A stretch of DNA of 64,000 bases from Thalia democratica (lineage: Eukaryota): the NCBI GenBank assembly GCA_965202585.1, contig OZ241828.1:54870001-54934000 (forward strand), in the 5' to 3' direction. Position numbers and translations under genes: made by a program. The notes below the pieces were generated by a model that was given only the letters and a program-made list of their open reading frames with translations, did not search any database and was not told the DNA's origin. Shown here piece after piece: positions 18,649 to 61,370 of this stretch (its first letter is position 1; every line of letters starts with the position of its first letter).

Positions 18649-18836
18649 CGTCTTACTTACATTTATGTAAATTTTAATTAAAAATAATTTTTAAATATCT
18701 TTAATCGTGAATTAATTTTAATTAATTTAGTTGTATATAAAGTTGCTAGATTTGCAATTGAAAATAAATTTAAAACAAATATATGTTTATTATATTATAC
18801 TTTCGTTGTGAACGGTTGTTTTTCGGTTGTGATTGT

Positions 18837-18879
18837 GACTGACTGATGAGTCCTAATGAGGACGAAACCGGTCTCAGTC
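18837..18879 (+). ncRNA. Minimal type I hammerhead ribozyme (Penelope-type)
   Basis: GACTGA-CTGATGA-GTCC-TAATGA-GGAC-GAAA-CCG-GTC-TCAGTC. Stem I GACTGA/TCAGTC, intact core, stem II GTCC/GGAC, stem III is the palindrome ACCGGT, GUC cleavage site after 18873. Outer helix TCGGT (18823-27) / ACCGA (18881-85). Confidence 0.88.
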
Positions 18880-18982
18880 TACCGAGGCTTGTGGTCTGAT
18901 GATCAAATTGGTGTGATCAACCCATTTACATTGATAATGTAGCAGACTATCACATAGATAGACTGTCGACTTAGAATAATTT

Positions 18983-23417: not shown

Positions 23418-26400
23418 ATGAAAGGAAATTTAGCTTATTGCATAATAAATGAAGGAAAAGAAAATGAAACCTTGTGTACTGCATATAAGTCAAAGCTGTG
23501 GAAGAAAGTTCTCTGTTTTTTGTTTACAGTAAGTGTTTTAGTTTTTAATTGCTAGTATTTGAATGGCTTATTTGTATAGTGAAGTATCTAAAAATACTTA
23601 AGGGCATAGGGGGGGTAAACACCCCCTTTTTTGGTTTTTGATCTTATTTTATATAGTTTTTACTAAGCTACAAGATGCTTTTTAAAAGATTGCTAAAAGC
23701 ATCTTGTAGCTTAGTAAAAACTATATAAAATAAAATCAAAAACCAAAAAAGGGTGTTTACCCCCCTATGCCCTTAAAAATATTATTTTGTAAAAGTTTAC
23801 TCCATTTTATTTATTAAAAAAAAAGAAATTCTCTTATTTTAATACCTAATGTGTTGCTATAATTTACTTTTATTAAAAGTAAACTAAATTAAATGTGAGT
23901 AGAAAATAATTACTTTTGTTACTTTTATCCTCAACTAAATAAGTAAATTATTAAAAGTGTTTGATTAAAAGTTTTTCAAATTATAATTTTTACAGATACT
24001 AACTGGTGGATTAGGTGGTCTAGTTTTTTATTGGAAGCCAGACTGGTGGTTGAAGTGTTCCCATGACAAATCAACTTTCAATAATTCTGATTATGTTCTG
24101 CTAGAAACTGTAAAAGAAGTCTCAAGAAATAAAGAGGTCGTTACTTGTTTTTAGTTTAACTTGTGAATGAAAAAAGTGCTAACATTTATATGAACGGTAT
24201 TAATGGTTGATTAAATAACCAATTCTTTAAACTAAGTAATTTGAGACGTAAATGAACTATGAAGATTTAACATAATCATGAATGAACTATTGATAAAAGG
24301 TTATACTAAAGCTAGCATTTAGTAAAATAAATAAATTCTATGGAATACCTTGTTTATAGTTAAATTTTTAAGGGAAAAACTTAACAAATAAGTTTAAATT
24401 AAAAATAAAATCAATTATGATATAAGAAAATTATTTATTTATGTTTTTTTTATTTAAACTTGTATTTATACTTTGAAAACCATGTAAGACGATTGAAATA
24501 TGTAATTTTCATATTAGAATAATTTTTTAAAATTATAACTAAGTTCATTAAAAGGGATCTAAGAATATTTTACAAAATTTTAAATTTAGTCTTAGTTAAA
24601 GGTCAAATTATGAATTACAAGATTCATTTTGTTGAACACATCTTCCTTACTTGTGTGATTTATTCGTTAAAAAAAATTTGATACAGCAGATAAAAAATTA
24701 TTCCAACTAAAAAAAAATACATAAAGTACATATCCTCCTAGGTTTTTTAATCTATTAAAATCAATTTTTTAAGAAACATTCCTTGTAATATAAAGAAAAG
24801 TGTATTGTAGTGTTTTTCAAAAAAAGTATTATTTTAAAAATTGTTAAAAAAAGGTAACTTATTTGGTTTAAAAGCTATAAATTTACTAAAAATAAAAGAT
24901 AGTTGTTAAAGGGACCTGTTTACTTTTTGAAAAGTGTTATATTGAGAAAGTTTTATAAAGATTTCTCAAAAATTGTAGAAGATTTATTTTTAACTTTGTA
25001 GTCTTTTTTTTGTATTAATTTGCTAATTCTGTAAGATACCTAAATAGCTCTTCAAGTTTTAATCCGTTAATCTTTAAAGTAATTTTGAGGTTAAAAAGTG
25101 GTAAAAATTGTTTGGTATAAATCTGCAAATTTAGAAGAAGTTGAAAATAAACTTTCTTACATCCTAAACAGTTGTTGTTTTGATTGATAATTTACTTAAC
25201 CACTGACATTAAAATGTAATTTGATCAAGTTAGACTATTTAGTGCTTAAATGCAATTGCTAAACAACCTAAGTTATCAGAAGGTATAAAATAGTATGTGT
25301 TAACCTATATATTTTATCTTTTTGATAATCAAGTTTTTCCTCGTGTTTGAAATAAGTCAAATTATAACTTTTGTGTAATTATCAGTTTAAGCTTGTTTGA
25401 AATTAAGCTTGAGATGTCACTAAACATTTGTATTAAATGCATATGATTTTGAAACTAAATATTTAAAGTTGTTATTTATTTTGAGCAATGTTTTTTTAAG
25501 ACAAATGATTATTACAATTATTAAACTTTAGAATGTGAATAAAAGAAAGACATATAGTGGTTAATATTTTATGTAAATTTTTATTTGTATTTTGACTTTT
25601 ATGTAAAAAATATCAATCTGTTTTTGGTGTTAAAGTTTTTTGTAATTTTATCAGGTGTATGAGTTTCTTTCGTTAGCAAAGCTCGAAAAGATTAAACAAG
25701 AAAAATCATCGGATAACAATAGTTCAACAAGGTTGTTTGCTTTTTTAGTTTTATTATTCATTTATTAAATATATATATTTAACTTATTTCTTTTATTCAA
25801 CTTGGTTTTAATCAAGTAAAAGCTGTTTTCAACATTTTAATTACTTTAATTCAAGAAAATATAATATATAATGAGTTAAACTACATAAAACTGTTATAAG
25901 TGTTAGTTAAAAAAAGATGTTGTTTAAGGATAGTCATTTTTGTATAGATGTAAAAAGAGCAAATATTTTTAAAAACTTCTTTTAAATTTTGCAGGTATGA
26001 AACATATTTTTCTTCCAACAATGCAATAGAGATGTATTTCAAATACCAAAACTTATACTTTGTGTGGAATGCTGTCAAATCAGTAAGACATTTAGATAAT
26101 TAAATTAAATTAAATGTATAACATGCTGTAAAATGTGCAATTTGGTAACTATTTTATGCTTAGGTTTATCAAATAAATTTATATAGTTCAATTATTGACC
26201 ATTAATGAAATTTTTCTGTTTTAAATGATTAGGTATTTTGTAATATTTGTCAAAAAACTGTTCTCAATCAGTTGAGAAAATTTGAAATTGTCAAATTTTA
26301 ATTAGTTTGTTTGAAATAGCTTTACCTAAAAAATGTTTAAATTAAAATATGAAATCGTTCATAATTTATTACTTGTCTATGTTTAGTTGACTTAGTTGAT

Positions 26401-29400
26401 TTTGGTTTTTATTTGATAATTTTTAAATACACAGTTTACGATTATTTAAAACAAAATAATAGAATTAAATTTATATTATTTACATTCATTATATTATTAC
26501 TAAGTAGTTTTTTTTTACAGAACTTTGTTGAAACAACCAAGTTAGACAGATGGGGAGTTGTGAAGCAAGTGGTTGTTTATCAGAACGAAGAGCAATTGAA
26601 ATGCAGTGCTTATCAGTCGAACATGCTGAAAAAACTCCTTTCTACTCTGTTTGTAGTGAGTCAAAATGATTAAAAGTCGCCTTCTTATCGTTTGCAGTTT
26701 TGCATCGTTATTTTATTCGATCTCCATTTAGGTTTAGTGTTTAAAAAAAGATTATAATTTTTACAGGTACTAACTGGTGGATTGGGTGGTTTAGTTTTTT
26801 ATTGGAAGCCGGACTGGTGGTTGAAGTGTTCCCATGACAAATCAACTTTCAATAATTCTGATTATGTTCTGCTAGAAAGCGTTGACGATGCACATTCAAA
26901 ACAGGTTTGTTTTATTTTTTAGTTTTTGTATTTTTTAAGTACCGTGTAGGAAATAAAATACAAGGTGTTACAAATTAATTTTGCTGTTTTGAATAACGAT
27001 TTTTGGTTACCAACATCAGAGTGTTAATTTTGTTTGTTCAAATTAAACTGCAAATAGTAATATTTTTATTTTCAGGTATTTGTATCAAAACTCAAGTACA
27101 TGCCTTCTGATCAAGCCCATTTGATGAAAGTAGCTTACATGAAATCCGAAGCTAGGTATTTGTTCATGTTATACTGGTTTTCAAATTTATCCTTTTTTAA
27201 TAGCTTTCTTTAATGAGTTGGTTAAGTAAAATAACTTAATTAAGTTTATAAAAAATATTTTTGCTATAGTTTAAAAAATATTATTTTAGTTTTACATTTG
27301 CAAAATACATTATTTAGGTTTTTTTTAAGTTGGTAACTTCTTAAATATATATTTTTTGTATTATATTTAGATCAAGTGATTCAAATGAGAAAACTTCTTC
27401 TACTTTGTACTTTGTCCACCAAGGTTTAAAGTTTATTTGGAACAATAGCAAATTGGTTAGTTGTGATTTTTATTTTCATCTCAATTCACTCTTTTTTTAT
27501 GTTTTTTTATTCTCTTTATTAGGGTAGACACAAATTAAATTAGTTATACGAGTTTTACATAGTAATAATCCTAATACAAGCAAAAGCATAACTAAGTTAC
27601 AATCCATATACAAGCAAGAGTGTTACTTAGTGCTTATTTGTCTTAGACCTTTGTTGAGATAAGCGGGTTGGAAAAACGCGCGAACATCGAGCAAATTTAC
27701 AAGGATGCTGAGACTGGGTTGAGTCAAGATGATTGTAAAAACAGAAATAAGTTGTTCGGATCTAACGTCATCAGTGTCAAGGTAATTTACAGCTTGAATA
27801 TCTTGTTTTTTAAGGTTTAACTTGAAGATTTCTGCACTATTGAAGATAAGCACAAATTAAAACTAGTACTTTTTTGGAAATGAAAGAAGTCTTAAAATTT
27901 ATGAACACTTACTTAAACTGAGGTTTACATTTCATATGTATATCAAAAATTATAATAAATTTGTAATTAAAGTTATATTTTAGTAATTTACATGAAAACA
28001 AACGTCGAGTTAGATGAATTGTTTTTCAAATTTAAACAGCTAAAATATACTCAAAAAAAAACGAATTTTGACATTACCACTTATTTAAACTAAGGTTTAC
28101 ATTTTATATGTATATCAAATATTACAATAAATTTGTAATTAAAGTTATATTTTAGTAGTTTACATAAAAACAAACGTCGAGTTAGATATATTGTTTTTCA
28201 AGTTTAAACAGCTAAAATATACTCAAAATCAAAAACGAATTTTGGTTGTTGTTTGTTGTATTTAAAATAACTGGTTAAAATTTATAATTTAGTTGCTAAA
28301 CTGGACATTAGTTAACTAAAATTACTAATATAAATAATAATAGTAATAATAATAATAATGATATATATAATGATTTTTTAAAAATTATGTTTTTGACTAA
28401 TTTATTTCTTTTTTTTTATGTGTACACGGGGCATTAGTTTGTTGATAGCTAAGTTAAGATTTTTCTAGTTAGCCAGCCATTAAAGTCCTTATACTTGATA
28501 AAAGTACTATAAATTTATTTAATACATTTTAAAACCGTTAAACTAAAATATCTATTTAATTCAAAGGTGCGACCATGGTATGTGATTCTGTTCAAGGAAG
28601 TTTTGAACCCCTTCTACATATTTCAAATATTTTCGTGCACTTTGTGGTACTTAGACGAGTATGAGATTTACGCCTCTTTTATTGTCGCTTCTTCTGTGTT
28701 GTCTGCCATAGTTTCAGTTTACGAGGTTTGTAGAAAGTACAAAAAAAACATATTTAAGTCTTATTTTGGATATCAATTGATTAAAAATTGTTTAAAGTGC
28801 ATATAGAAAAACAAAAATTTATTTTCTATAACAAAAAAAGAAATATATATATATACGAAAATTAAGCAACTTTTCAAGCTTAAAAAATAAGCTACTTTTC
28901 AAGGTATACTTTTTATCTATAACCAAACAAAAATTAATCAAACAAATTTTATATTTCAATAAAGTACTTGTTCAACATCTCCTAGTTATACAAATCAGAC
29001 TAAACAATTTTTACCAAAGAACCGGCGAAGCGCCGTGAAGATTCGCAAGATGGTCGATTACCACAACAACACCATGACGACGGTGATGCGGAGGATGGGT
29101 GACGGAACCCAGATGGTGGAGAACATTTCTTCCAGCTTGTTGGTTCCTGGTGACGTCATAATCATTCCGGCGGGAGGAATGGAATTGTCTTGCGACGCCG
29201 CTCTGGTTTCCGGTCGGTTTAAAATGATATTTGTTTATTATAAACGATATAAAATATCTTTTTTACCTGAAAAGATTTTATGGAAAATAAAATACATCTA
29301 CAGTTTTTTATGTAATGACGAATAAAACAGATTTCATTTGTTAAAAATTTACCTAAGTCATTTTAATTAAACTTTGAGTTTGAATAGTACTGAACACTGT

Positions 29401-35400: not shown

Positions 35401-38400
35401 TAATAGAGAGTCAAAAGTGTTCTTGCTAAAATATTTTCAATTTGATTTAGTGTTAAATATTTTCAGTACAGTAGTTTGAAGTTGTATTGTAATAAAGTCA
35501 TGGTAGTTCTTAAATATTTTCGACTAATTAAACATAAAGTTTTTTGTAAATAGTTTAAAAACGACTGATAAAATGTTAATGGACAAGTTTGCGTTGCAAA
35601 TTCGAGCGAAGCTATTTCGCAATAAAACTTGAAAACAAATATTTAATTTTAGTTTAAAACGTAATGTAAGTACTCTTAATTCTCTTCTGGTAGCATATGG
35701 ACTTTGATTATTATGTGTAAATAATATCCAAGCATTGAGAAGTAGCTATAACAAACTCTAGTGTTTTATGTAAGTGATTAGTATATCAAGATTAGTGTAT
35801 AAAAATAATGTAAATGTTTAACTTGCTTTGGAAGATCTTTTGAATATTGTTTAGATTAATGCAGTTTTAAGGGGTGTAAAAGAAATTGCTTAGCATATTA
35901 AAAAACATTAATTATGTAAAGATAAAATAAATTTGCAATTACTTGCTTACTATAGTTATAAAAATGGTATAAACAAATTACTATTGTTTTTTTCAATAGT
36001 TTTTTTTTTATTTCTTAGAAGTAGTGTTAAAGTAAAAGTTATTTAAGTTCATTACTCAGACATACTACGTGAAATTTTAAAACTATTATTTGAACGCTGT
36101 GAGTGTGAGTAATTAATTATTTTAATAATATTGTTTAGAACAATTTGTTGGTAAATTTTAGTAAATAACTTGACAAATGTTGAATTTAAGCAAAAATTTA
36201 GTAGGAGCACGTTATTAAGTTTTAAGACAATTAGTTTTATCTATTTCACAAATTATTAGGCAACACTTTTATTGATGACCAAATAAACCTGTATAATTTT
36301 ACAAAGTTAACCGATAATGTGTACACACAGTTTGTATGTTTGTCTTTACTCGACGGGCTGTAAAAAACGTTGAAACAATATCAACCCAAAAATTAAGCAT
36401 GGCTTACTATTATCATTCTTGTTGCTTATACTTTTTAAGGCACTCTAATATTGTCTGTTTACAATGCAGTCTTTAAACTAAGATGTTAACAAACCATCAA
36501 CGATCAGGCGTACACGCAACAAGGGTACAGGATGATCGCGTTGGCCCACAAACCGCTCAACGCAAGCTGGTTGAAAGTGCAGAAGATCGAGAGGTCGAGT
36601 GTCGAGCGCGACCTGCAGTTCTTGTGCCTCGTCGCCCTGCAAAACAAGCTGAAGCCCCAGTCGCAAGGTGCTTAAAAATTGTTACTGCAAGTTTAATTTA
36701 AATGAAACGCTTGTCAGTTTTTTTTTTTCAGTTTTATTGTTTTAATGAGTTGTAAATAGTTTTTGTTATCTCTCAATCAACTGTTTGCAGTCAACTAATT
36801 TAAAGAAATTTTTATGTACAAATAAAATTAAAAATATTTTCAATTAAAATGTTCAACATGTTTTCCAGGCGCGCTGAAAAAGCTGAGAGACGCGGACATC
36901 CGCACCCTGATGGTGACCGGAGACAACCTGCTCACAGCGTTGAGCGTGGCCCAGGACAGCGGCATGGTCAGCGCTTACGACGACGTCATAATTGCGGAAA
37001 CGCGGTTGCCAAGCGACGGTGATGACGTCGACAAGCCGACGCTCGTATTTAAATACTGCGAAGGTTACTCGGCTAATTTCAACCCTGCAGATGTGTTAGT
37101 TGTTATATATATAGTCCACAATATTTTAAATAAAAATAATTTTTTATTTTAGTCAGCGAGAGTAAAGCTAAAGCAATTGATAAAACTTGCATTAAACTCA
37201 ATTTTTAATTGATATTTTACACTTAATAAGACTTTTGTATACTGAAAAATTCCTTTCAAATTTACTAAGTTCCTTAAAAATCCACAAAATATAACTTTTA
37301 AGAACTGTTACTCAAACTACTTAATGTTTTGATAAATGTATATAAAAAACATTCAGTTAGAGTCAGAGTCTTAAAATGATGAGTAACATGATTGATAATT
37401 ATATATTTTTAATTGTTATTGATGGAATTGCTTGAAACGACCTTGAAACAATGTTGAGGCGAGGGAAGAGGCCCACCGCTGGTTAAATAAAAACCCTCAC
37501 ACTCGCACACCTAAAATTCAACAACTTAAACTTTTTACCTTAATTTTAAAATCCGTTTTATATTACCTTAATGCTGGCAAAAAATTTACGTAAAACGTAA
37601 AGTTAAATTGTTGTTTAAAAACTATGATGGTTGAGTGCTCACATGCACTCGTATACCTGAATTTCTTCAATTTAAAAGTTTAATTATCTCAAGTTCTGAC
37701 TTCAATGTTTGTTTAAAGCAAAACTTTAACTTTTTTTATACAACCCCAATGCTAATGCAAACTTTCTGCAAAACTTAAAACTAAAATGTTGTTTGAAAGT
37801 TCGGGTGGTTGAGTGTTGAGCCGATGATTCATTGTTTCAGGTCCCAGCGGTGAGGCTGGTGATTGTGTTGATCGTGACGTCACAGTACGTCTCTTCAACT
37901 TTTCACTAGCCGGTAAAGGCCATATTTTTATGGTTTGAATTTGTACTTTTGTTGTTTGTTGAAGTTGTAATTAACATTTTTTTGAAGTTGAAACTGCATC
38001 ATTTTATTTAGATTGTTTACCTAATATTTAACATTTTTAAACGTTAGTCTCCTATAGTACTTGATTGAAAAAAAAAGGTCTTTTATCAAACACAAATATG
38101 TTTCAACAAATTTTCATTAGTGTGATGCAATTGTTACAAAATAAAGAAAATTATAAAGTTATATAGCCTTGTAATTGCATCAGAAATTAGTCAATTAAGC
38201 AAAACACAAAACAAAAAAAAGTAATTAAAGTTCTAAATAAACATAATTAAATATAACATAAGAGCACTAATTAACCAAACAAGGATAATGAATAATCAAC
38301 GTCTTTCTGCTTGCATAATTTTGGTTTATTTAAATGTGTGTATATTGCTTCAATTTTGACCAGGTCAAAAATACCGTAACAGCTTCTTAATATTTTAAAA

Positions 38401-41400
38401 TTTGTTTCATTATAATTTTCCACAAATGGGATTTTTAATTCAGATATAGATTGACCTTTAAATGTATTAAAATACCACTTTATTGCAAGACACAATAATT
38501 TTTTCATTATTACTATTATTATTGTTATTATTATTATAACTTTTATTAAGAATTTAAGCGCTTTCGAAATTCACAAACTCCCTTGTCAAAAATACTAAAC
38601 ACTCACAAGTTAACTAAACATAATATATATGGAGTGAAACTAAATCATTTGTAAAAAAAACACAAGTGATTAAAACGATAAGTAATTAAGTAAAATGGAT
38701 CATTAATAAACAAAAAAATAATTAAACCAAAATGGATTATTTAAATATATTAATAGTTACTCTTGATCCTTTATCAAGACCAAGCTGATTAATTATATTG
38801 GTTAGGGATTTTTAATTAAATGTTCTGATATTGAAGATTATTCATTGCATTTAAAGTTGCTATACTAAATGTTTTTTGCTGATTGTAAATATCTTCTCTT
38901 ACACACTTTGCAATTCTAGTTTCAAGATGCCTAGATGTATGACCAATATAACTGTTTGAACAACAGCATTAAAACGTGTAAACCACGCGACTTTTATGTT
39001 TTTTAGATATTAGGTTTCTACCTTTAGAACTTGATGTAAATTCACTCTAGGTTTAGCAATACGATATACTTTTTCCCTTAACTTCTTTATGTTTCTTTCA
39101 GTCTAAGTTGATTTTTTACCTGCATAAGGCAAAATCAAAAGAACTGGATATTTTCAGGACCGTAGGGTTTCATGTAATTTAATCTATTAATTTCAGTTTT
39201 AAAAACTATCAATCAAAGAATTAGGATATCCGTTCTATATTAGCATTTCTTTTATAACATTAAGTTCAAACTCAAAACTTCTGGAGAAAATATTTTCTTA
39301 GCTCTGTAGAATAAGGTTTTAATTAAAACAATTTTCTCCTTCTGTAAGATTGGAAATTTAGATATTGACCCGTGAACGTAGGTTTTCTGAGTACCGACGA
39401 GATAAATTTATTATATTTTATTTTGATCAAAACATCTAAGAACGATATTTGTTTATTTACTTCAGTTTCTTTGGTGAACTGGATAGCAACATGTAGGGAA
39501 TTTAATTTCTCGAAAAATAAAGAGCTAACTTTTTCACTGTCACTAATAATGAAACAATCGTCAACGTATCTTACGTATTTACATAAATTTTTGCTAGATT
39601 TTGTTTGTTAAAGTGATGTTTTCAGATTTTTTTAATCATACTTTCACTACTTATATAATTTATTTTACAATCCAAGTAGTTTAAAATGTAAAGTATATAA
39701 ATAAAGTTTTAACTTTCATTTAACGTTTCTGATTAAAAAACTTGATTTTGTCGGCGTAATTTTGTTCACTAGTATAAAACGAATTCTAATAAAAAAATTT
39801 AACTATAAACATTTATTATCTGTTGCAAAACACTGTACTAATGAACATTATTCCACTCAAGTTTTGGACTTTAAAATTCTAAAACACTTACACTCTGTTG
39901 ATATAAACTGTAAAAAAACACTTAAAGCCAAAAGTTCTAGCATTCCTAAAAGTTGACTCAGTTTAATTTTTGTCATAACTTTTCAAAAAAGTAGAAAATT
40001 GAAAACAATACATCAAATACTTTTATAGACGTTCTTTATAATTTTTTTGATTACCCTAGCTCCTCCTTACAGTTAAGTGTTCATACCATTTTTTGTTATT
40101 TTTGTAACTAATTTTTTTAAAGTTAACTTAGGTAAATATAGTTTGTCAGCTTTAATTTTTAGTCAAGTTTTTGCTTAAAATATATTGGATGTCCGACTAA
40201 TTTAAAGTTTCATTAGAGGTGTACTACTTACTAAATTGCTAAATAGACTATATTACATAACTTTACTACAAACTATAAACATATGGTTTGTTATAAGGTT
40301 ATAATTATCAAAGTACATAAATTATATGAGTATGGTTTAACATAACTAAGAAGCTATGTATTACTATATTGAGGTGTTGTGAGTCATTTAAACTCTATTC
40401 GATAACCAGTACTTAATTTACTAAAATTAATTTTAAGTTTATTCTTTTTTAAAGTGTTTGTTGCTGAAAAAGTTAACATTAAAATATATAGATAAACCTT
40501 TAAGTCCATTTAAATTTGAATACAACATACTATTTAAGTTTCTTTTTTGTTTAAAAGTAACTAAGTTGAAAAATGACATCAAGCTTAAAAAAGTTTAAAG
40601 TAAATTTGATATTAAAGCTCAAAAAAAGAGTATAATTTAGTATTTATTTTTACTAATTTTGCTAAGCATTAGCTCATAACAAATCTGTGAGGTACGAGAC
40701 TTAAAAGAAGAAATGTACACATAGATTTAATAATAATAAATTTTCAGTTTAGTACATATAAAAGTTTCATAAATAAATAACAAAAGCACTGTATCTAAAT
40801 AAAAGAGAAAAATATTTTTATTTTACCAATTTCATTTTAAATAATTCACTAATTTAATTTTATAAAATAAACAGTCAAGATGAAATGTATGTACTTGACA
40901 TAAAAACAGTTTTTTGCGTGCATGTTAAGACTGAAAAAATTGATCAAAAAAGGAAGACTGCTAATTTACGAAATAGTTTGTAATAATATTGTATTTTTTC
41001 AAAGTTTGTTTTGTAATTTATATTACACAAAAAGTTAAAAAAATAACTTTTTGAGTTTTTGTTACAAATTATGTTGGGTTATTTTATTGTTGTTTAGATA
41101 TTCGGAGAATTTAAATAAAACTAGATTTTATAATTACTATTTGTCATAAAAAATGTTAAAAATCAAAAATTAATTAAATTGAAATTTAATAACAACCGTT
41201 TGTGGAATTAGCTATTTGGACATTTTAAATAAAAGTAGATTTTATAATTATTATATCTCATAAAACTTATGTTGAAAATTAAAAATCAGTTAATCTAAAA
41301 CTTAATAACAGCTGTTTGTGGAAGCAGCTTAATTTTTTTTCGTAGTTTTTTAAGGCCATTTCGAAATCCAATATTTTACTTATGAAATTTAACACTAGCT

Positions 41401-44400
41401 TTTATATAAAACGCTACCTAGTTTATATAGAATTGAAAAAAAAATTGAAACAGCGTATTTTTTATAAAGTTTCTAACACAAACATGTGGACCACCAATTT
41501 TTCGTCATCAATTTTCTGAAAATAAAAAAGTTCACTAGAATCTATCTTTTCCTTAGTTAGTTCTAGAGACCTTAAACATTCAGTAAACTTCCCATATATG
41601 GCTTAATAGGTTTTGAATGTTAGAATTTAAAAAGTAGTTAATAATTATAATTTTCATAAAAAGAAAAAACAATAAAAAGTGTTTTGTTTCTAACTTTTTT
41701 ATTTTTAAAAGTTAAAATAATACGTGTATTGAAAATATTCAAATATTAGCAACGGACTAACTGTAAAAATTTAACGAAGAATAGTTAAATTATGAAGAAG
41801 GAGATACATTTTTAGTGAAATAGTATATTTTCGTGTTTTTTGTTTGCGCCTTTTATAAGAAACCTGTTGAGCTTACCTACTTCGATTACTTATATATCAA
41901 AATCACTTTGAGTTTTGTTAAGTGATAGATTAAACTATATGATACTTAAGATACAACTCTAAAAAATTAATTCAAATTTTTAAAAAACAAGGTGGTATTA
42001 AATTTAAACAAGCCTTATATAAATAAATTTTATTTTTAAGATTTGTCCTAAGTTTCTTAAATTTATTTTGTTATATAGACACTTTCAAACTATAAGCAAG
42101 CGAAAACTAAAATAATATATAAAACTTTTGATATAGTTGATAAATTCTAAGAAATGTAACTATTTATGAACTTTTGCCTTTTAAAATATCCAAAAAGGTT
42201 TTTTTGTTAAGATTTTTTTTAAACAGTTTTGAATAATTACCCCATTATTTACAATAATGCTAGTTATTATCTTTTTTCGACGTCTTCAAAACAGGATATA
42301 GTCGTTAAGAAAATTAGTTTTATGGTAATAGTTTAAATTTAGGTGGTCTTTTCAAACAAATATTTTCAGAACTCTAGATTTAGTTCATATTTTTTAGTCA
42401 CTTTTTAGTTTCAGGATATAGTTGTTAAGAAAATTAGTTTTATGGTAATACTTTAATTTTAGGTGGTCTATTTATACAAAAATTTTCGAAACTCTAGATT
42501 TAGTTCATATTTTTTAGTTTCTTTTTAGAAATTGATACTATTTACCTTTACTTGTTTGAAAAAAATTTTCCATAAAAAATATAATTTTAGCCAATTTAAT
42601 ACATACTACTTTTTATCTAAATTTGTTTCAAAAATCTTTCTAAATTTTTATAAAAAGCATAGTTTATTTAAATTTAGTTTTATTTTATACATTTTATTAT
42701 AGTTTTATTTTAAAGATATTGTCACTGTTTGTGGGATGTTTAACGATTTTTTTGCTACTTATTGTTGTTTGTTTCCAGTTTAGAAAAAAATATTTCCGAT
42801 ATCATAATAACAAAAACATGGCTAGATAAAAATGCGATTAAAGTAGTCAAAACTTATAGTAAGAGAAACAAAGCATGCTAGATCAGTCACTTTTGTAAGC
42901 ACCTTAATGAATTATTTAAAAACAAAACAAAATTGTTATCTTTTTATAATGAAAGGTCAACTTTTACTTTATAAGTAAAAAAATATTATTAACCCACCAC
43001 AGTTTAAAATTTTATTTTTTTGTGTTTATAGCTAGTATGGAGAGCTTTTTCGTAAACTAAGATTTATTTCTTTTTTTATACGTATAATGTTATAAAAAAA
43101 CTACTCATGTTTAATGATGAACCTTAATCTAACTCTTGTATTGTAAAATACTCTAACTCTGTTTTGAAATCATTATATTTAGTTTTATTGAATTTTATAA
43201 CAGTTCACTGAATGTTTTAAGTTTATTTAAAGGTTATGTGTGGTTTTTATATATTCTTTTGAACCTCTATTTCAAATTAGCTTAAAACTACGGGAAACAG
43301 AAAAAGGTATTTACAAAATATTTTCGTTTATTTACAAAACATTTTCAATTGTAAAAATGGTTTAGATGGATATTTTGTTTTTATACAACACTATTTTAAC
43401 GGTTTACATTCAAAACCTAGAAAGTTTTTAAAAAAGAACTTTTGTAAATGTTAAATAAAAAAAGTAGGTAGTTTAGGTCTGATTCTATAAATTTTTAAGG
43501 AAGAGCATAATGTCTCTTTATAATCTTAAATGTCATGAATATATCAGGTTATAGATCAAATTAAGTGCTTTTATATAAACCAACTACTGATAAAATCAAG
43601 TTTTATTTCAGAATTTTTGTAACATTCCTTTTTAAACTAGAACTTCTGAAAACCATTCGAATATTCAATTAAACTTGATTTTTTTTTTTCATAAAAGTCA
43701 ATTGTCACAGCACAATGTTAAGCTTGGTATAAAACACAGTTTTACTGTAATATAGCTATAAAAATTAATAACATTTAATCTTATGGTGCAATTTAAGAGT
43801 GACTTTGAGTTACATGCATTGCTATGAAAGAAGGTTGATATATAATCGTTTTTTTAATTTCTGGTTAGATTTTTATAATCTAAAACAATTTTTTTTAAAT
43901 GCTGTAATCATACCAACTACCACAACAATAATAAACTTAAGTTGTTTTGATAGCGGTATTTTTGTTACTATTATGCAAAAGTTACGGTAATTAAAATATG
44001 TTTAACAAAACAAGTAAACCAAATGGCTTCTGTGTGGTTCAACATTAACAATTTTACATTTAAAATTGTTGTTTATTTTAAATTACGAAGTAAATAAAAC
44101 TAGTATTATTAGTTTGATTTGTTTTTTAAGTTATATAGTTTTAGCTTTGTTGTAATTTATTTGATGAACATTATGAATCTATTACACTAAACTAGAAGTA
44201 AGTAATTTTTCAAGTCGGTGGGCCAGATCTTCCAAAAGACAAGTCTTTTGCACGCCGGACTTGTTAAAAAGTATCTTGACACTTTGCATAATTTTGAAAA
44301 AAAATACTTTAAAAACAAAACTGTAATGATAAAGTTGTCTGAAAAGCTTTCTACTATCCTGATTAACAAATTTCAAAACATTTTTAAAAACTTATTTATT

Positions 44401-47400
44401 TTGTGAAAGCTGTTCTCAACCTGAATTGTATGTCGTGGGTTTTTTTAATTAGAAGGCCGGATCCAGCCTGCGGGCTGTACATTGCTTACCTCTAAACTAA
44501 AAAGTTATAGTCTTTATACATGCTAATAAAAAAATACTATCCTGTAGTAATTTTTTGTGAAGAAATAATTAGATTATGTTATTATAAGAAGTTAGTTTGC
44601 TATTATGTTACTGCAATATAGTTTTTTAACACTCTTTGAAAAATAAAAACTTAGTTTCTTGAACAAAAACTTTATAAGAATCGATAACTTGCTCAACTAT
44701 TTTATTATTACTTTTGTTTGTACCGGCATTAATTTAAATCATTGTGTTTTCTTTAAAATAGTTTGTCTCGTTTTTTAAATAAAGCAAAAGTTAAGACGCA
44801 ATAAAGCTATAAAACGCACAAACTATAAAATTCGAGTTATTTTTGAAACTATAAGCAAATTGTTGCAGGCTGTATTTCAAGTAATTTGTTTTGTCTCTAA
44901 AATTATATGTGTGGGAGTACATTTTTGTATGTTTCTATAAAAGTACCTACTATGTTTAGCAAAACACGATCAAAAGTATTTTTAGTTTTGTGTTTTTGCA
45001 ATCAAAGAACATTTTTCTGGTTTAATCTTTTTGCATTGATATGTTTTATAGACAACATATTTTTTTTTACTTTTGTGTCAAAATACTTATATGTATGTCA
45101 ATTATAATAGTTTCACTTTTCTTAAATTTAAAAGTTTGATAGAAAGTTTTTTTTGAATAACTTAAGATTTTCTCAAAATAAAATATAACTATTAGTTTAG
45201 TTTTATTAATATAAATTTTTATTTGTTTTTAAAACTGAATTTTATTTTTTTTATAAAATAAGTCTATATATATGATAAAGAATTTTCTTCGTGTAGAAAA
45301 ATTAAGCAATTATTCATAAATGATATTAATTAAATAATTAAATTTTGCATTGTTTATGAATTATTTTGATTTAAATCATTTTATGAATGTTTCTTATAAA
45401 AATGTAACAAACAGTAGTTCATTTGGACATGAAAAGATTAAAGAAAAAAGAAAAAACAGTCTGAAGTATTTTGATTCAAAAAATTCTTCGAAAAAGGTTA
45501 ACATTTTTTTTAGTTTATTTTTAAATTCTGTATGAACTCAACATTAAAGTTTTAAAAAAAACATTTTTTTAAGTAACGTATTGTCATTAAATAGTTCACC
45601 TAGTTTTAAAATAAAATAAAAACTAACAGTTTTATTCTTAGATAATTGAAAAAACGCGGTAAAGATTTTTGAATAACTTATATTTTGTCATATATAAATC
45701 TTGAGTGTAACAAAAATGCCATGTTAGTTTAGCACTCTCATTTGGGTATGAGTAATACAGTTGGTTATAAAACAATTGATTTTTAGTATAATTTAAAAAA
45801 AGTTTTTTGAATAGCCAGCTTAGTTGTTTTTATACAATTTTATTTTTAAGAAACTGAATAAGCTGTTAAAGTAAAAAAAAAAAAACAATTTCTTAAAACA
45901 AACTGAAGCCGTAATGTTTACACTGTGTAATTATTATGAATAAATATTTTTAGTATCAATGCTAATGTAGGTAAATTTTCACAGTACAGTTAAAAAAGTA
46001 ATTTAAACTTAAAAGTATACAAACAGTGTAAACAAAAAAGCTCTATACTTATAAAATTTCAATGACAAAAAATATTTTAAATACAAGTTCACTTGCTCTC
46101 TTAAAATATTGCTAGTTTCATCATCATGCAAACTTCCTGCATTAAGCTTTTAGTTAACAAACTTACATATTAAACGAAAGTTCTACTTGATTATACTTTT
46201 AAATCAAAGTTTCCAATTCGTAAACATAAAAAAAAGAATAAACAACTATGATTTATTACTCTGTAAATTAGGAAACAATGTAATGTAAATAATTAATCAA
46301 AATTTCAATTTTTTTTGTTCTCTCCTTTGTGTTTATTCACCTTTTAAAGTTGCTGTAAATATTTGCCTGCTTGTTTAGTGAATCCAAGGTTAAGTTCTTT
46401 GTGCACATTAAACAGTAGACAAATTCTTTTGACCAATATCTTATAACTGTTTTGCGCACGAAGTATTTTGTTTGTTGCTTCAGCATTAGTTAATGTAAGG
46501 TTAACGTACAAAAGTGATACTAATACTAATTGGTCACCATTAAAAAGCTGATAGCAAGTTTACTTGGAGTAAAGAGTATATCTTTAAATAAAATACTTAA
46601 AGTTTACTTTTATGTATCTTGTTTAAATTATCATGTCTGTTCAAGCAGTTCTATGTAAAAGTGCTGAACAGTTGAATTTGTTCTACAGAACTGGCATCTT
46701 GCATTGACTGGAACGGATTTCAGTAATATTAAAAATTATTTCCCCGATTGGATGGAAACTGTTGCTTTGAAAGGTTTGTGACTTTTAGTTTACAAGTGTT
46801 TAAATAGCTAATGTACATTTGTCAGTTTTCAGATTAGTTATTTTTAGTAAGCTAAGTTATTAAACTAATAAATTGGCGAGTTTGTCTTATTTATAAACAT
46901 GTCTTATTGTTACCTAATGTACTTTTCAACGTAGGTCGCTTTTCAAGCACTAACTGTACCAATTATAATTAAAAAACTGTCACTGTAAACTTAATTGTTG
47001 TGTGATCTTCGTTGTTAAAAACAAACACTGTACATGAAATTAAGTAGCTCTAAATCAAGGAGACTCAACAACTCGAAACTTGCTTTTTGATCAAAAATAA
47101 GCAAATTATACTTAAGAGCACTATTTTATAAATTTAAAAAATGTTTCAATATAAAATAAAGTAGTTTGACAATTGAACATCTTCTAAACAGAACGTGCTA
47201 AATAATTATTATTCTAATAACATAAAAAAAAAACTCTAATAACAAACTCACAATTAAACAGAGTTGAAGTTCTAACAATAGATAAACTATACAAAATTAA
47301 TTAATAAAGATTTTTATTTGCAAAACTAAGTTTCACCCTTAAGGGATCTTCATTTAAAATCTGAAGAATAAAAGTTAAACATGGAAGATACTGTAAAGCA

Positions 47401-50400: not shown

Positions 50401-53280
50401 ATTTGTAAGTTAAGATTATAACAAAACAAATTAAAATGATATTTTTCAGCCATAATACTTAAAAAAGGTGTGGCCATAGAAATATTCATAACTAAATTTT
50501 TATATGCACGTAAGTAAATAATTTTATTTACCATAAGTTTAACTTTATGGGTTTGTTAACTTTTATACAACAAAATTGCTGTGAAAAATTATTTTTAGAT
50601 AGCTCTGTTAAAGTATTTTGTGAGTGAAGTATTTATGAGTATGCCTAAGCATAAGATATTATATTATATTATCTATTATATAAGCTCAACCAGGTTATTT
50701 TATAAATACCGTTTAAAACAAATATTTTAGAAACTCTTTATGCTAAATACGACAATCAAATACATTAATGTTTTGGATATTGTTTCAAGTTTTAAAAACT
50801 TTTCCGAAAAAATGTATTATCGTAAAAAATGTAAATCTGTTTTTGTTTTACCTAACAAGTATTTTATATATTTTAAATAAATAAAGTATATTTTTTACAG
50901 TAACTAAAGATGTGGTCTACAATCATTCAACTTGCTCCTACAACTTGACTTATTACGATCAAACTCAAGTAAGTTTTTTTTATTAATCACCCAGTTTTTA
51001 TTATCCTAATAGCTGAATTAAGTTTTAATAGTGATTTTAATAAAAAATAAGTTGACTTTAATTTAAGTTGAATTATTGACTATAAGTTATCAAAACTAGG
51101 TTTTTACTCTTTGTTATAAAATTTAGTTAATCAAAACAAAAAATAAAGCATTGTTAAATTTTAAGTTGATTGTTAGGATGAATTTATGCTATAACTTTAA
51201 AAAATAAACTCATTTTCTTTTCGAACATTAAGTTTAGAACAACATTTAATGACATCGTACATTTCATAGTTTTAGTTGAAATTTTTTTTTTCAACAAACC
51301 ATGTTTTATCAAAAGTAATTAGGTGTTAACTGTTATTCGCTGAGAAAAAAAAGTAAGGAACGCATTTCCGCTTGGGTTCAAGGTGCGTACCTTATCAGCA
51401 TGTACTGTATTATTATATAATTTGACATTTTAAAATTTTATTAACAAACTTGCATACTATTCACTAGTATATTTATTATTTACAAGTTTCAAGCTTATAA
51501 TAAATACTGAAGAATTATTAAAAAATTTTTTTATCCCGTTCTTTATAGGATTCAGAATCAAATTGCGTACACAATCAATTTTGCTGTTATATTACAAACT
51601 TTCAGGCAGAACTGTTTACTGTAGAACATTAATTTTTACCTTGTGAACTTTCCAGGTTGAGGACGAGTACGACGTGATGCAGTACTCCACCACCTACCTC
51701 ACTCTCATCTCCACCTTCCTCTACCTCACCACCTCCATCACCTTCAGCCACTCCCACCCGTTCCGAACGAGGATCTACAAGAACAAGCCCTTCTTCTTCT
51801 CCCTCGTCGTCCTCTACTCCTTCAACACCTTCCTCGTCTTCTTTCCCGTCCAGAGCCTCTACGACTGGAGCCAGGTGAGACTGCACGATTAGATAATTAT
51901 TTTGGAAGCAATAAAGAGTTCGTTTTTAATCTGTTGTTGGTGGGTGTTAAAGATGTATCCAGTCTTAATATTTTAGTGACTATCGGTGGTATTTAAATAT
52001 TTGCAGAACCCTAACCTTCAGTTTTATAATCAGTTTCATTAAAAATCAGTTCAACTTATTGACTAACGACTTTTCGCAGCTCATAAAATATGAGCAGTTC
52101 TCGGATTTTCACTATATACCTTTAGCAATTTTACTCTTTATTTAACTGTTCATAGTCATTAGTTTTAAGAACTAGCAGCGAAACGCGTAAGTCAATAAAG
52201 TGTTTGTGTACCAAAAACTTTTTTTTGATTTTTCAATTGGCTCTGTCTGTTTGAAAATTTTGGAGTTTACGCCTTATAAACAGGGAATCCTGGAATCTTG
52301 GAAAAATCTTGAATTTGAGAAATTTTGAAAAAAAACAGTAATTTTGAATAAAAATCATTAAAAACCAGGAAAAACCTGAAATTTTGAACAATTTTTACAT
52401 GTTAAGTAGTTGAATTTTGATTTGATACAAAAAATTTATCATATAGACAAAAAAGAAATTATAAAAAACACACTTAAAAAAGCATAAAGATATCTTTTCT
52501 ATGTCATTATAATTTTTAACATAGTTTTTTACCAACTTAATTTTAAACTAAAAATAGACTCTAAAACGTGTTATTTTAAAATACTGGAAGAAATATTGAA
52601 AACCTGGAGAAAATTTGCCAAAAACATTTGGCAAGCCTGTAAATAGTTATTTCTTATGACTGTAAGGTCAACAAAAACATCGGCGAAAGTCTACAGAACC
52701 TAAGCCTTAACTTTCGTGTGCTGTGAGTCTCAGTTTACCGAAGGCTTGTGGTCTGATGATCAAACCTTATGTTATAACTGTACGTATACTATTATTAATA
52801 GTTTAAAAATATTTGCTTACAATCAAGGATATTTCTTAAGCCACTCCTAATAAAGTTATACTATAATACTACCATTTTTAATATTAATTATAATATACTT
52901 GCTCGCAGTTGAAGATGTTCCCGACCACCAGCATCCAGTGGTCCGTCATTCTCTTTGCCGCCGTCCACTTCGTGCTGAGCGTGGCGTTCGAGTTCTTCTG
53001 CGTCGAGAACAACCGGGTGTGGTTGTTCCTGCGAAACCGCTTCGGAAGCCAAAAGTTCCTGCCGAAGCACCAGAAGCTGTTGCGGCGCCTCTCGCCTTCA
53101 AAATCTCCCGCGAAAGTGGAGGAGGGTTTGGGGGAACAGATGAACCCGTTGTACGCCATCGGAAAGGTGTTCGTGTCGAACGTGCGGCTGGAAGGCGAAG
53201 CTGAAACCAGCTGCACGAGCGAAGTTTCCACCGAAAACTACAACTTCACTTCTTCCAACAGTTTCGTTGAAGTTTTATGA
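23418..53280 (+). CDS. P5B-type ATPase (ATP13A2/3/4/5 family, probable polyamine transporter) with tandemly duplicated N-terminal domain, ~27 exons, ~1376 aa
   Basis: Exons: 23418-23528, 23996-24136, 25655-25731, 25995-26082, 26521-26655, 26767-26904, 27076-27155, 27371-27455, 27647-27781, 28567-28725, 29020-29212, 29644-29797, 30139-30328, 30559-30735, 31829-32104, 34179-34247, 34752-34958, 36508-36667, 36869-37063, 37841-37884, 46689-46773, 47533-47687, 49191-49450, 49779-49936, 50901-50968, 51656-51874, 52909-53280 (sum 4131 nt, in frame). Motifs: [30 protein letters not shown] (P5B signature), [49 protein letters not shown]. The junction at 37063-46689 has alternative in-frame solutions. 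Confidence 0.92.
23602..23772. mobile_element. TTAA-flanked near-perfect palindromic MITE (Kolobok-like termini)
   Basis: TTAA|GGGCATAGGGGGGGTAAACACCCC...GGGTGTTTACCCCCCTATGCCC|TTAA. About 80-bp arms with a ~12-nt spacer. Confidence 0.8.
27906..28244. repeat. Two-copy tandem duplication, 172-bp period (intronic)
   Basis: CACTTA(C/T)TTAAACT(G/A)AGGTTTACAT...ACAAACGTCGAGTTAGAT...CGAATTTTG starts at 27906 and at 28078. Confidence 0.9.
32782..33678 (-). CDS. Candidate two-exon antisense ORF (~104 aa) nested in a P5B-ATPase intron
   Basis: Exon 33678-33530 ([23 protein letters not shown]...MRTRFSE, donor GTAAGA, phase 2) and exon 32947-32782 (acceptor TATTTCCAATTTAAG; [28 protein letters not shown]...GTPTE*). 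Both are GC-richer than the flanks. No homology recognised. Confidence 0.3.
38271..39610 (-). mobile_element. Decayed, 5'-truncated Penelope-like retroelement (RT C-terminal half + GIY-YIG endonuclease), partial tandem structure
   Basis: Minus-strand translation: [11 protein letters not shown] (YVDD 39568-39557)...[13 protein letters not shown]...ISFLDV...[16 protein letters not shown]; NGYP (39233-39222); LPYAG (39132-39118); [27 protein letters not shown] (VVY 38986-38978, YIG 38950-38942); [12 protein letters not shown] second endonuclease C-terminal segment ([35 protein letters not shown]) is at 38507-38271. Stops and frameshifts are present. Confidence 0.9.
38549..38596 (-). ncRNA. Variant (U3-A8) minimal hammerhead inside the Penelope-like element
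   Basis: AGTATTT-TTGACAA-GGGAGTT-TGTG-AATTTC-GAAA-GCGC-TT-AAATTCT. Stem I has 6/7 pairs, core TTGACAA, palindromic stem III AGCGCT, stem II weak with G-U pairs. Confidence 0.55.
41098..41329. repeat. Diverged two-copy tandem duplication, ~116-bp period
   Basis: TTAAATAAAA(C/G)TAGATTTTATAATTA...TAATAACA..CGTTTGTGGAA..AGCT occurs twice. Confidence 0.7.
41340..41606. mobile_element. Decayed inverted relative of the 21229-21891 element
   Basis: Reverse complement shares AAATGGCC(T/C)(T/C)AAAAAA and TGAA(T/A)GTTT(A/G)AGGTCTCTAG with 21650-21740. Ends CCCATATATGGC|TTAA. Confidence 0.4.
42292..42528. repeat. Two-copy tandem duplication, 120-bp period
   Basis: CAGGATATAGT(C/T)GTTAAGAAAATTAGTTTTATGGTAATA... 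starts at 42292 and at 42412. Confidence 0.9.
44211..44493. mobile_element. Degenerate hAT (Charlie-type) relic
   Basis: GGTGGGCCAGATC and GGCCGGATCCAGCCTGCGGGCTGTACATTGCTTACCTCT resemble the subterminal and terminal motifs of the 20420 element. Left end not resolved. Confidence 0.4.
46379..46388 (+). other. Candidate 10-nt micro-exon of the P5B-ATPase (alternative to exon 37841-37884)
   Basis: Strong acceptor TTTGCCTGCTTGTTTAG and donor GTTAAG. Phase 2 to 0 fits the GTTAGT donor at 37095 and the phase-0 exon at 46689. Confidence 0.4.
48058..48153. repeat. Small MITE-like element with 23-bp inverted termini
   Basis: CTCCCTATTGAAGTCGTCAGTTA / TAACTGGCGATCTCAATAGGGAG (20/23). Confidence 0.6.
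48405..48688. mobile_element. Possible TTAA-flanked (Kolobok-like) non-autonomous element
   Basis: TTAA|AGGAGTG ... CACTGCT|TTAA (6/7 termini) enclosing a GC-richer block. Confidence 0.3.
52281..52639. mobile_element. Possible hAT-type relic
   Basis: Starts CAGGG, ends TTTGGCAAGCCTG, with repeated internal (A)CCTGGA(A) motifs. No matching TSD. Confidence 0.35.
52712..52764 (+). repeat. Homologue of the 18821-18906 hammerhead cassette lacking the catalytic core
   Basis: TTTCGTGTGCTGTGA|GTCTCAGTTTACCGAAGGCTTGTGGTCTGATGATCAAA aligns to both flanks of the 18837 ribozyme with 18839-18870 missing. Confidence 0.75.
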
Positions 53281-54011
53281 TCATTTGGTAAGAAGTACTG
53301 GCATGTAGATTTCAGTGGGACATTTGACCAATATCTTCTAAAACAATTTTAATGATGTTTTATGGTTAGAGTTTTTAGGAGCTTTGTTGACATGTATATT
53401 TTTTCGTTCTAGCTCAATGCTTTTACTACTGTTGCTTCTTTTTGATCGTATCTTTTTTATCTAACACTATTTTTTGTAAGTACAGATCACATAGTATATC
53501 TTTTTAAAAATTTTCAATTATAACCGAATGTACTTAAGTAAATTTTCTTACTAATGATTAATTTTTGTGCCTTGGTATAAATTTTACGGCTTACAGCTCG
53601 AACATCATTGTGTACAAACGATTAGTTTTTCTCTGTGATGAATTGTTTCAGTAGCTGTATGAAAACACTTTCAACCAAAGCTTTATTTCCTGCGAGGCCT
53701 CTATACTCTTTTTATTTATATTTATTTTATGGTTTTGCACTACTGTAGTGAGGAGTTTTAAAGTTTTGTGTCTTTATTTTAATGTTTTCAATGAGTAACT
53801 TTCCCATTTTGATAAACATCTTAATGTCTCTAAATATGATAGTAACTTTAGGTTGCTTCTAACTACATAAAGAAATTTTCCATAAAGCCTTTCTTTTTTC
53901 CTCTTGTTTAATCATAAAACCTAAAAAGAGAATAAATTCAGAGAATCTCCAAATAAAATAACGATTCTCATATCCTACATGTTTTGTATTTAAAAAAAAT
54001 GTGACCAACTT

Positions 54012-54278
54012 ATATAAAACTTTAACTTGAAACTTTGGAAAGATTGAGCGAAACAATGTATTTATTGAACATAAATGAGATCAATGTAGCAGTTTTATTT
54101 CTTCAAGTAATTTATTTTTTGTTTAACATTTTTATTTAAAAAATATATAAAACTTTAACTTGAAACTTTGGAAAGATTGAGCGAAACAATGTATTTATTG
54201 AATATAAATTAGATCAATGTAGCAGTTTTATTTCTTGAAGTAATCTATTTTTTGTTTAACATTTTTATTTAAAAAATA
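54012..54278. repeat. Two-copy tandem duplication, 133-bp period
   Basis: ATATAAAACTTTAACTTGAAACTTTGGAAAGATTGAGCGAAACAATGTATTTATTGAA starts at 54012 and at 54145; near-identical copies. Confidence 0.92.
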
Positions 54279-60512: not shown

Positions 60513-61370
60513 CTGTAACCTCTCGCTTATTTACGCACATTGTGTCCACAGAAAAAAATGCGTAAAGATATGAGAGATCGTAAAGATAAATTAGGTACAG
60601 AATATACTTACTATAATGGCTGTTTCTTGATATTGCTTCTGGTTAAAAGCGGACTGGGGACTTTACCTCTTTTTACAATTTGTTTACTTTATTTATATAT
60701 ATGAAAACAAAAGATAAAACTATACCTCTATTAAAAAAAGGATTTAAATTTATATGAAATAATAATACTTGTAGAAAAATTTTAAAAAATTTAATAACAA
60801 GTAGATTTTATCTTAATCTTTATTTATATGTGACTTATTTGATACTTAACATTTATATTATATTGTACTTAGCAAATTAAATTTATAATTATGCATTTGT
60901 TTACAACTAAGAAATGGTGTGATTTCTATATTAAAATCTGTTTCTATAGTCTTTAAAACATGAATTTGGTGCTTTAATGGATTTCTTCTTTTGAACAAGA
61001 ATATATAAGATATAAGAAAAATGTTTAATAAAAATTGTTTATGTTACTACAACTTTTTTTAGTTTAACATTTGCCCACATAAGGATAAACCTTAATTTAA
61101 TCTCTTATTGTTAATAAAATTTATGATATACTGAGTTATAACTAAATCTTCATCAATTAGTCAAAGAACATAAGTTTACAAAGTCTAAAGATAAAGAGAG
61201 GTGAGTTAGCATTTAGAAACATATTTTAAGTTAATAACATACAATAAACCTAATTTGAGCAATAATAAAAAAATTAAAATTTTTTTTATTTGAATTTTTA
61301 GAATTCTAAAATGCGTAACTAAACGAGAGTGCGTAACGTCACAAGTTCGTAAATATGCGAGAGGTTACTG
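60513..61370. mobile_element. Non-autonomous Tc1/mariner (pogo/Tigger-like) element
   Basis: TA|CTGTAACCTCTCGCTTATTTACGCAC ... GTTCGTAAATATGCGAGAGGTTACTG|TA. 26-bp TIRs 23/26 identical, TA on both sides, subterminal TGCGTAA motifs. Confidence 0.82.

Follow-up and report, generated by a model that had tools for sequence, protein, structure and literature searches.

The 64,000-nucleotide (nt) stretch of Thalia democratica DNA analyzed here (contig OZ241828.1, positions 54,870,001 to 54,934,000; the window) carries the remains of a Penelope-like element (PLE), in which a reverse transcriptase (RT) is followed by a GIY-YIG endonuclease, in an intron of a P5B-type (ATP13A-like) ATPase gene. An initial annotation of the window had recognized a PLE at this locus, which is right, and had read it as a partial tandem forming pseudo-long terminal repeats (pLTRs), which is most likely wrong. 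The locus combines PLE homology, a truncation, a split endonuclease, a 13-nt direct repeat and two unrelated hammerhead ends. We consider it probable that this is a nested insertion, that is, an old and dead PLE copy, called the outer PLE below, that was later struck by a second small insertion. The locus is an ordinary transposable element fossil.

The motifs that define the outer PLE were placed by six-frame translation of the 36-42 kb region and by a motif scan. They were recovered on the minus strand in the order that had been claimed, spread across three frames: YVDD (39568-39557), RKPTFTG (39388-39368), NGYP (39234-39223), LPYAG (39132-39118) and the VVY...C-x-C...YIG-x-T-x-R...RI block (38986-38912). 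Homology begins at about 39583-39595, and the copy is 5'-truncated immediately before RT motif 5. All parts that follow lie on the minus strand as well. The first, mapped by alignment to the database protein P0003 and by hidden Markov model (HMM), spans motif 5 (YVDD), the thumb and the linker and contains frameshifts and stops (39020-39595). It leads into the N-terminal half of the endonuclease, with VVY, C-x-C, YIG and R, which ends at ...IKNP (38805-39019). The C-terminal half was mapped to 38271-38427, with its stop codon at 38273-38271; both halves are supported by alignment and by endonuclease profiles (independent E-value, i-E, 2.4e-11 for the N-terminal and 1.8e-6 for the C-terminal half). 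Downstream of the stop codon lies a 146-nt T-rich 3' untranslated region (UTR) with an imperfect 14-bp hairpin in the predicted fold (38125-38270; 53% T, within the top 0.4% of window segments), and then a candidate decayed hammerhead with one core mismatch (G5 to A), a weak stem II and a broken helix III palindrome (38091-38124). The coordinates of the initial annotation leave out this second hammerhead (38124-38091).

The proposed Penelope-like identity was borne out by the relatives of the RT. A clean 92-residue RT piece matched 67 of 147 candidate proteins at E<=0.001, the best of them 76-78% identical, and 5526 matches at E<=0.001 were found in a second protein library; the RT matches those of PLE type, and the best matches were not RTs of another kind. 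A family profile built from the fetched relatives recovered the RT piece with an i-E of 4.9e-37. The RT and endonuclease profiles match no other place in the window, where the next best endonuclease match had an i-E of 0.25. A precomputed GIY-YIG domain is found in 7 of the 67 RT relatives, Pfam places both RT and GIY-YIG on P0062 and P0064, and the C...C...YIG pattern is present in 48 of 218 collected proteins. With eight pieces of the window as queries, Pfam gave a weak RVT_1 match on the RT piece (E 0.026) and none on the endonuclease pieces. A scan of prokaryotic genomes for further copies returned 13 loci, all of them bacterial RTs with 20-33% identity to the family, and a search of the PDB with P0008 returned no matches.

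The outer copy is dead, and the locus makes no protein. Against P0003, 133 of 185 aligned residues of the RT piece are identical, with 2 stops and 5 frameshifts; against P0008, the outer PLE shows 5 stops and 7 frameshifts across 309 aligned residues. The locus contains stop-to-stop open reading frames (ORFs) of 94 (39323-39607) and 99 (38271-38570) amino acids. In the alignment the endonuclease lies C-terminal to the RT within one ORF, now broken, that is collinear with P0008 and P0011.

The split in the endonuclease was located by a frameshift-aware alignment in which long insertions were free. The full-length relatives P0008 and P0011 run collinearly from the RT into the endonuclease, skip 375-377 nt in a single jump past ...IKNP, and then go on to the C-terminus. 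With 38804-38428 (377 nt) left out, the reading frame stays intact over the junction. Both ends of the jump are marked by an exact 13-nt direct repeat, a candidate target-site duplication (TSD), with its left copy at 38805-38817 and its right copy at 38428-38440 (minus strand). It has just these two occurrences in the window, and none of 2000 shuffles reached 13 nt. An ATT is found within the repeat and immediately 3' of it. The two endonuclease parts overlap by this exact repeat and nothing more. An extension of the repeat to SISE, 5' of the right-hand copy, was rejected as chance level (scores at least as high were reached by 92 of 600 random stretches).

The two parts were also compared across relatives. 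The set consisted of 42 complete endonucleases, obtained from the 48 pattern matches after six without a complete endonuclease end had been removed. A P-x-L-C-x-Q end, as in the downstream half, is carried by 21 of the 22 endonucleases with C-x-C spacing and by 1 of the 20 others. Scores on the two halves correlate over the 42 relatives (Spearman 0.78), and the same relatives are best on both. Judged from the shared end type and the correlated half scores, the two halves belong together. The downstream part had been described as a second, diverged copy of the endonuclease C-terminus; this could not be upheld, as NFKIL, EAIY and PKLCKQK occur once each and the downstream part continues the upstream one and holds the element's only C-terminus.

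The 364 nt between the two repeat copies (38441-38804, minus strand) have the anatomy of a PLE 3' end, or solo pLTR plus tail. This insert opens with a short open frame (38737-38804, stop 38739-38737) that weakly resembles the C-termini of other PLE endonucleases. A 143-nt T-rich UTR-like stretch follows (38594-38736; 55% T, within the top 0.25% of window segments). The hammerhead and (TAA)n tract that had been noticed in the middle of the locus were both confirmed, the former as a type I minimal hammerhead with a U3-A8 core (38593-38552) and the latter as a degenerate tract of period 3 with 14.3 copies and 75% matches (38548-38506). Between the tract and the right-hand repeat lie an ATG and about 65 nt more; this stretch is possibly an ORF start or a tail. 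As a PLE N-terminus the ATG frame was rejected, having no match to the N-terminal profile of full-length relatives. The insert and the outer 3' end share a layout of stop codon, T-rich stretch (143 versus 146 nt) and hammerhead. Their UTR-hammerhead ends gave no alignment above shuffles in any of eight scorings (57-275 of 500), nor in another comparison (427 of 1000). No tandem array over the insert and no further copies of it were detected within the window. Based on its anatomy, the insert is probably the solo pLTR or 3' end of another PLE family.

The peptide at the insert's coding end was compared with known C-termini by an end-anchored alignment, where it ranked 39 of 1873 window peptides against 53 endonuclease C-termini and 128 of 1873 against all 216; this comparison was chosen after P0162 and P0217 had been seen. 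The BLASTP match to P0162 has an E-value of 0.12. An endonuclease C-terminus was not supported by HMM (rank 437-908 of about 1500) or by a position-specific scoring matrix allowing a frameshift (rank 1158 of 197260). A coding-end match this weak would suit an insert that is an unrelated short retroelement not coded by a PLE, such as a retrozyme monomer or an element like a short interspersed nuclear element, that carries a hammerhead and a (TAA)n tail; this would not alter the nesting. Retrozymes commonly occur as monomeric copies, and in Xenopus 42-44% of the retrozyme copies overlap introns (bioRxiv 10.64898/2026.07.22.740005). However, animal retrozymes are themselves derived from PLE pLTRs (same source), the spacing of stop, UTR and hammerhead is that of the outer 3' end, and the peptide's three best among the 216 C-termini are PLE endonuclease ends, so that we find an insert of non-PLE origin barely credible. 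Non-LTR retrozymes resemble the insert in being short, non-coding and pLTR-derived, with a type I hammerhead, but they consist of tandem units with a hammerhead in each (bioRxiv 10.64898/2026.07.22.740005), whereas the insert is a single unit.

The hammerheads were identified with a descriptor that required a core with a C3-G8 or U3-A8 pair and stems I and II, allowed an extra base, and did not require the G10.1-C11.1 pair or a palindrome. The insert hammerhead has the U3-A8 pair, an extra base before stem II, the G10.1-C11.1 pair and a palindromic helix III. Local shuffles yielded a hammerhead in 2 of 1500 cases for this motif and in 33 of 1500 for the decayed outer motif. The extra base between 9 and 10.1, the G10.1-C11.1 pair and the palindromic helix III are described as traits of PLE minimal hammerheads, with a U3-A8 variant in Schistosoma (PMC4209133). 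All of these, including the U3-A8 covariation, are shared with the Cercyon hammerheads of Schistosoma; the insert differs from them in the sequence of its stems and in being a single copy that has no compatible dimer partner in the locus. Metazoan PLE minimal hammerheads likewise are mostly single motifs from truncated PLEs (PMC4209133). The two hammerheads of the locus differ from each other in their stems and in helix III. The insert hammerhead is core-perfect and the outer one decayed, which weakly fits a younger insert. Because both are located on the opposite strand, they cannot cut the ATPase pre-mRNA.

Minimal hammerheads are thought to be active as dimers formed via the helix III palindrome. 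In cofolding, the insert hammerhead paired with itself via its palindrome (-21.5 kcal/mol), and the two hammerheads of the locus did not pair in this way (-12.0 kcal/mol), which speaks against the initial reading of the locus as a canonical partial tandem with two pLTRs of one element. Such a tandem would explain why T-rich UTR-hammerhead units occur twice in one orientation and why a short motif is repeated. In its canonical form, the upstream copy is truncated at its 5' end and the downstream copy is full-length, so that both have the same 3' region (PMC2377424). Here the order is the opposite, with the longer piece upstream and a downstream piece that continues it. There is no repeat above 13 exact nt between the units, the C-terminal motifs have no copy in the upstream part, and the UTRs and hammerheads are unrelated in sequence. 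A search for a pLTR pair at the locus found no repeat of the 3' region. The collinear alignment and the failed UTR-hammerhead comparisons thus largely refute the tandem, to which we attach almost no weight. Penelope copies without pLTRs have been described (PMC2377424), so the missing pair lowers the tandem claim and not the assignment to PLEs.

A weaker form of the same idea is that two copies of sister PLE subfamilies lay head to tail, the upstream copy losing mid-endonuclease sequence by deletion and keeping its own C-terminus, UTR and hammerhead, and the downstream copy being 5'-truncated; the 13-nt repeat would be leftover homology. The similar anatomy of both ends agrees with this, as does a 23-nt stretch of 78% identity between the SEHLIK and THLNK regions that could have seed­ed a deletion. 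Three further observations favor sister copies and at the same time weigh against a nested insertion: P0149 is a C-x-C protein with a non-LCxQ tail, the comparison of the whole insert with the whole downstream piece is borderline (41 of 1000 shuffles), and so is that of the hammerhead flanks (4 of 200 mononucleotide shuffles). On the other hand, the deletion in one copy would have to end exactly where the other was truncated, the overlap, although exact over 13 nt, is insignificant past that, the downstream type of end is the rule among C-x-C endonucleases, and the UTRs and hammerheads do not align. We regard sister copies as unlikely.

Several other results count against a nested insertion or against the parts assigned to it. 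The four closest relatives, P0003-P0006, end before the endonuclease, two protein searches for closer endonuclease relatives scored 0 of 7 and 0 of 5 candidates, and the outer family's own C-terminus is thus predicted from relatives at the 50-55% level. The coding end of the insert appears only weakly PLE-like. Rfam found neither hammerhead of the locus, and none between 37900 and 39000 even at E<=10. For neither of them is the hammerhead structure the fold of minimum energy, and the insert hammerhead, when constrained to fold as such, has an energy of +1.4 kcal/mol. Around the whole outer copy no TSD was detected, the longest shared word being 8 nt (387 of 500 shuffles gave one as long); PLE copies that are old or joined by microhomology may have no TSD (PMC3846280). 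Finally, the candidate TSD of 13 bp is slightly above the 8-10 bp reported in that paper.

A nested insertion could have arisen as follows, if the biology of other PLEs applies. An element of the Penelope/Poseidon type would have been copied by target-primed reverse transcription into an AT-rich intron, antisense to the ATPase gene. Synthesis would have proceeded from the 3' end (hammerhead and UTR) through the endonuclease and the thumb and halted just 5' of YVDD, so that the outer copy would have been dead on arrival. What inserted next, in the same orientation, would have been a 364-nt piece, most likely a solo pLTR with its tail from the 3' end of a second PLE family; the agent of this second event may be a PLE. 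A staggered cut would have duplicated the 13-bp target and split the endonuclease gene between ...IKNP and ICGK, and neutral decay would have followed. PLE copies can carry a tail of 30-40 nt that matches the ORF start. A Poseidon protein favors 5'-ATT-3' for cleavage within AT-rich DNA and begins reverse transcription inside the start of the ORF, and the latter accounts for such a tail (PMC11167929). Adineta vaga offers a precedent, with TSDs of 8-10 bp, solo pLTRs, pLTRs of about 200 bp, and the element Pen2a_Av inserted within Pen3 with a 9-bp TSD (PMC3846280). Pen2a_Av is full-length and in the opposite orientation; in T. democratica, a 364-nt piece sits in the same orientation within the endonuclease gene.

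The same final structure, with both parts in one orientation, would result from a single retrotransposition with two template switches. In that case the RT would have jumped from the RNA of the outer element to the 3' end of a different PLE RNA, copied it and jumped back, so that 13 nt were copied a second time. PLE insertions with complex tandem and inverted arrangements have been described (PMC8557442). Two jumps are required, however, and the stronger apparent decay of the outer hammerhead favors two events at different times; we think template switching decidedly improbable, below the sister copies.

The type of the outer element was judged from published clade definitions, by which a C-terminal endonuclease with two cysteines between the GIY and YIG blocks and no zinc finger in the linker indicates Penelope/Poseidon (PMC8557442). 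The linker between the RT and the endonuclease aligns to P0008 without a cysteine motif (no CX2-5CxxC zinc finger). Because of this missing finger and of the two cysteines between the GIY and YIG blocks, we assign the element to the Penelope/Poseidon type by definition, as far as its sequence allows. Neptune and Nematis, defined by a CX2-5CxxC linker finger, were ruled out, as was the Hydra clade (CxCX5C linker, endonuclease without CCHH), given the lack of linker cysteines and the two cysteines between the VVY and YIG blocks (definitions from PMC8557442). Naiad and Chlamys, with an endonuclease N-terminal to the RT, were also ruled out, the endonuclease here being 3' of the RT on the element strand. 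In the CCHH zinc finger of the endonuclease both cysteines and the second histidine are kept, and the position of the first histidine falls in a 4-codon gap relative to P0008.

In a tree of RT motif 5 to thumb (49 rows), the row from the window groups with P0003-P0006 (100/98), among proteins of the C-x-C/LCxQ type. Six proteins with a linker finger form a separate group (100/100), apart from the window row. The tree contains unnamed database matches and is midpoint-rooted, and for these two reasons it does not formally place the element. With the Penelope/Poseidon clade the element has in common the succession of RT and GIY-YIG in one orientation, the missing CX2-5CxxC linker, the VVY...C...C...YIG-x-T-x-R-x-L-x-x-R pattern, and a candidate hammerhead about 150 nt past the stop; its relatives have the DKG motif and a G-x-A-M-G-S-P motif 4. 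It differs in the C-x-C spacing and P-x-L-C-x-Q C-terminus of its subgroup, in place of L-N, and in that this copy is truncated, split and without a pLTR pair. This C-x-C subgroup, in which P-x-L-C-x-Q replaces L-N at the end, is large and unnamed, comprising P0008, P0011, P0074, P0079 and others (22 of the 42 endonucleases). By eye, the nearest named endonucleases are Perere_Smed and PENELOPE (Fig. S2 of PMC8557442). A motif search for either C-terminus in the supplements of PMC8557442 and PMC3846280 gave no matches, the alignment file of the latter perhaps not being covered.

The initial annotation had also proposed this class of element as the likely source of the hammerheads scattered through the window. 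Four perfect-core hammerheads were found, at 18837 (+), 38593 (-), 43355 (-) and 62810 (-), against 0.2 expected (mean of 20 block-shuffled windows), and 17 with one mismatch, against 7.8 in 15 shuffles. The three outside the locus have no similarity to it in their flanks and no PLE coding remnant nearby within the window, and the outer element is consequently not established as their source. PLEs as a class are a plausible source (PMC4209133), with this element as a candidate. In folding of eight single-strand stretches, the 18.8-kb stretch alone was better than its shuffles (z -2.24), and the locus gave z values of -0.70, 0.08, 0.39 and -0.54.

Other hammerhead observations in the window are as follows. 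The one at 43355-43310 (-) has a perfect core, also with U3-A8, and is in the same intron and also antisense. A perfect-core minimal hammerhead is located at 62810-62772 (-). At 18837-18879 (+) there is an intact-looking type I hammerhead, with a second core-like CTGATGA about 15 nt farther on; the only hammerhead found by Rfam is here (18827-18893, HH9, E 0.006, below gathering). A 38-nt stretch at 18871-18907 recurs at 52727-52764, which makes the 18.8-kb hammerhead a member of a separate repeat family. On the strand opposite to it, a degenerate core was seen at 19088-19070. The peptide encoded at 61230-61290 (+) bears a weak likeness to the ends of PLE endonucleases (score 38); it is followed by neither a hammerhead nor a T-rich UTR and is probably a chance match.

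The window is eukaryotic and AT-rich (about 27% G+C), with GC-richer exons. The host intron, of 8.8 kb, runs from 37913 to 46671 on the plus strand, between exons 37841-37912 and 46672-46773, with splice sites predicted from GT/AG and frame (phase 1). A later exon of this plus-strand gene matches ATP13A2 with an E-value of 1e-16. The antisense position of the PLE in an ATPase intron, as initially annotated, was thereby upheld. The intron that precedes the 37841 exon contains a diverged 82-nt direct repeat (37556-37637 and 37734-37815, 72% identity). Elsewhere in the window, ORFs at 3600-11000 (+) look like exons of what we take to be an aminopeptidase-N-type gene. An 801-codon open frame at 56400-58805 (-) comprises about 12.5 copies of a 93-nt repeat and is rich in Ser, Glu and Asn. 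A long, near-perfect hairpin at 23599-23775 resembles a miniature inverted-repeat transposable element and has an Rfam MIR2670 match below the gathering score. A 128-nt dispersed repeat was mapped to 23980-24107 and 26751-26878. Finally, two-copy tandem duplications (114-172 nt) and a 15/30-nt array were found among 27906-28244, 41094-41323, 42292-42528, 54011-54279 and 63381-63631.

The significance of the locus is limited, since invertebrate genomes abound in decayed fragments of PLEs and in single minimal hammerheads, and a PLE inserted in a PLE has already been described. For annotation it teaches that a nested insertion can pass for a pLTR arrangement. It also offers a starting point for building the consensus sequences of two PLE families of this genome, one of them with a U3-A8 hammerhead. 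A far more speculative and very improbable version is that the 364-nt unit, as a non-autonomous PLE derivative, is a hyperparasite of another PLE family that inserts preferentially at a single conserved position of that family's endonuclease gene and disables the host element, or that the two-ribozyme chimera is itself a mobilized family, in which the ATG after (TAA)n opens a frame of 78 codons reaching through the endonuclease C-terminus. A non-exhaustive literature search brought up no description of insertions targeted to the endonuclease genes of PLEs. Recurrence of the insert at this codon in independent copies would mean that one PLE targets another in a site-specific manner, and such targeting, if true, would give a natural handle on the specificity of the PLE endonuclease, which is still poorly known (PMC11167929).

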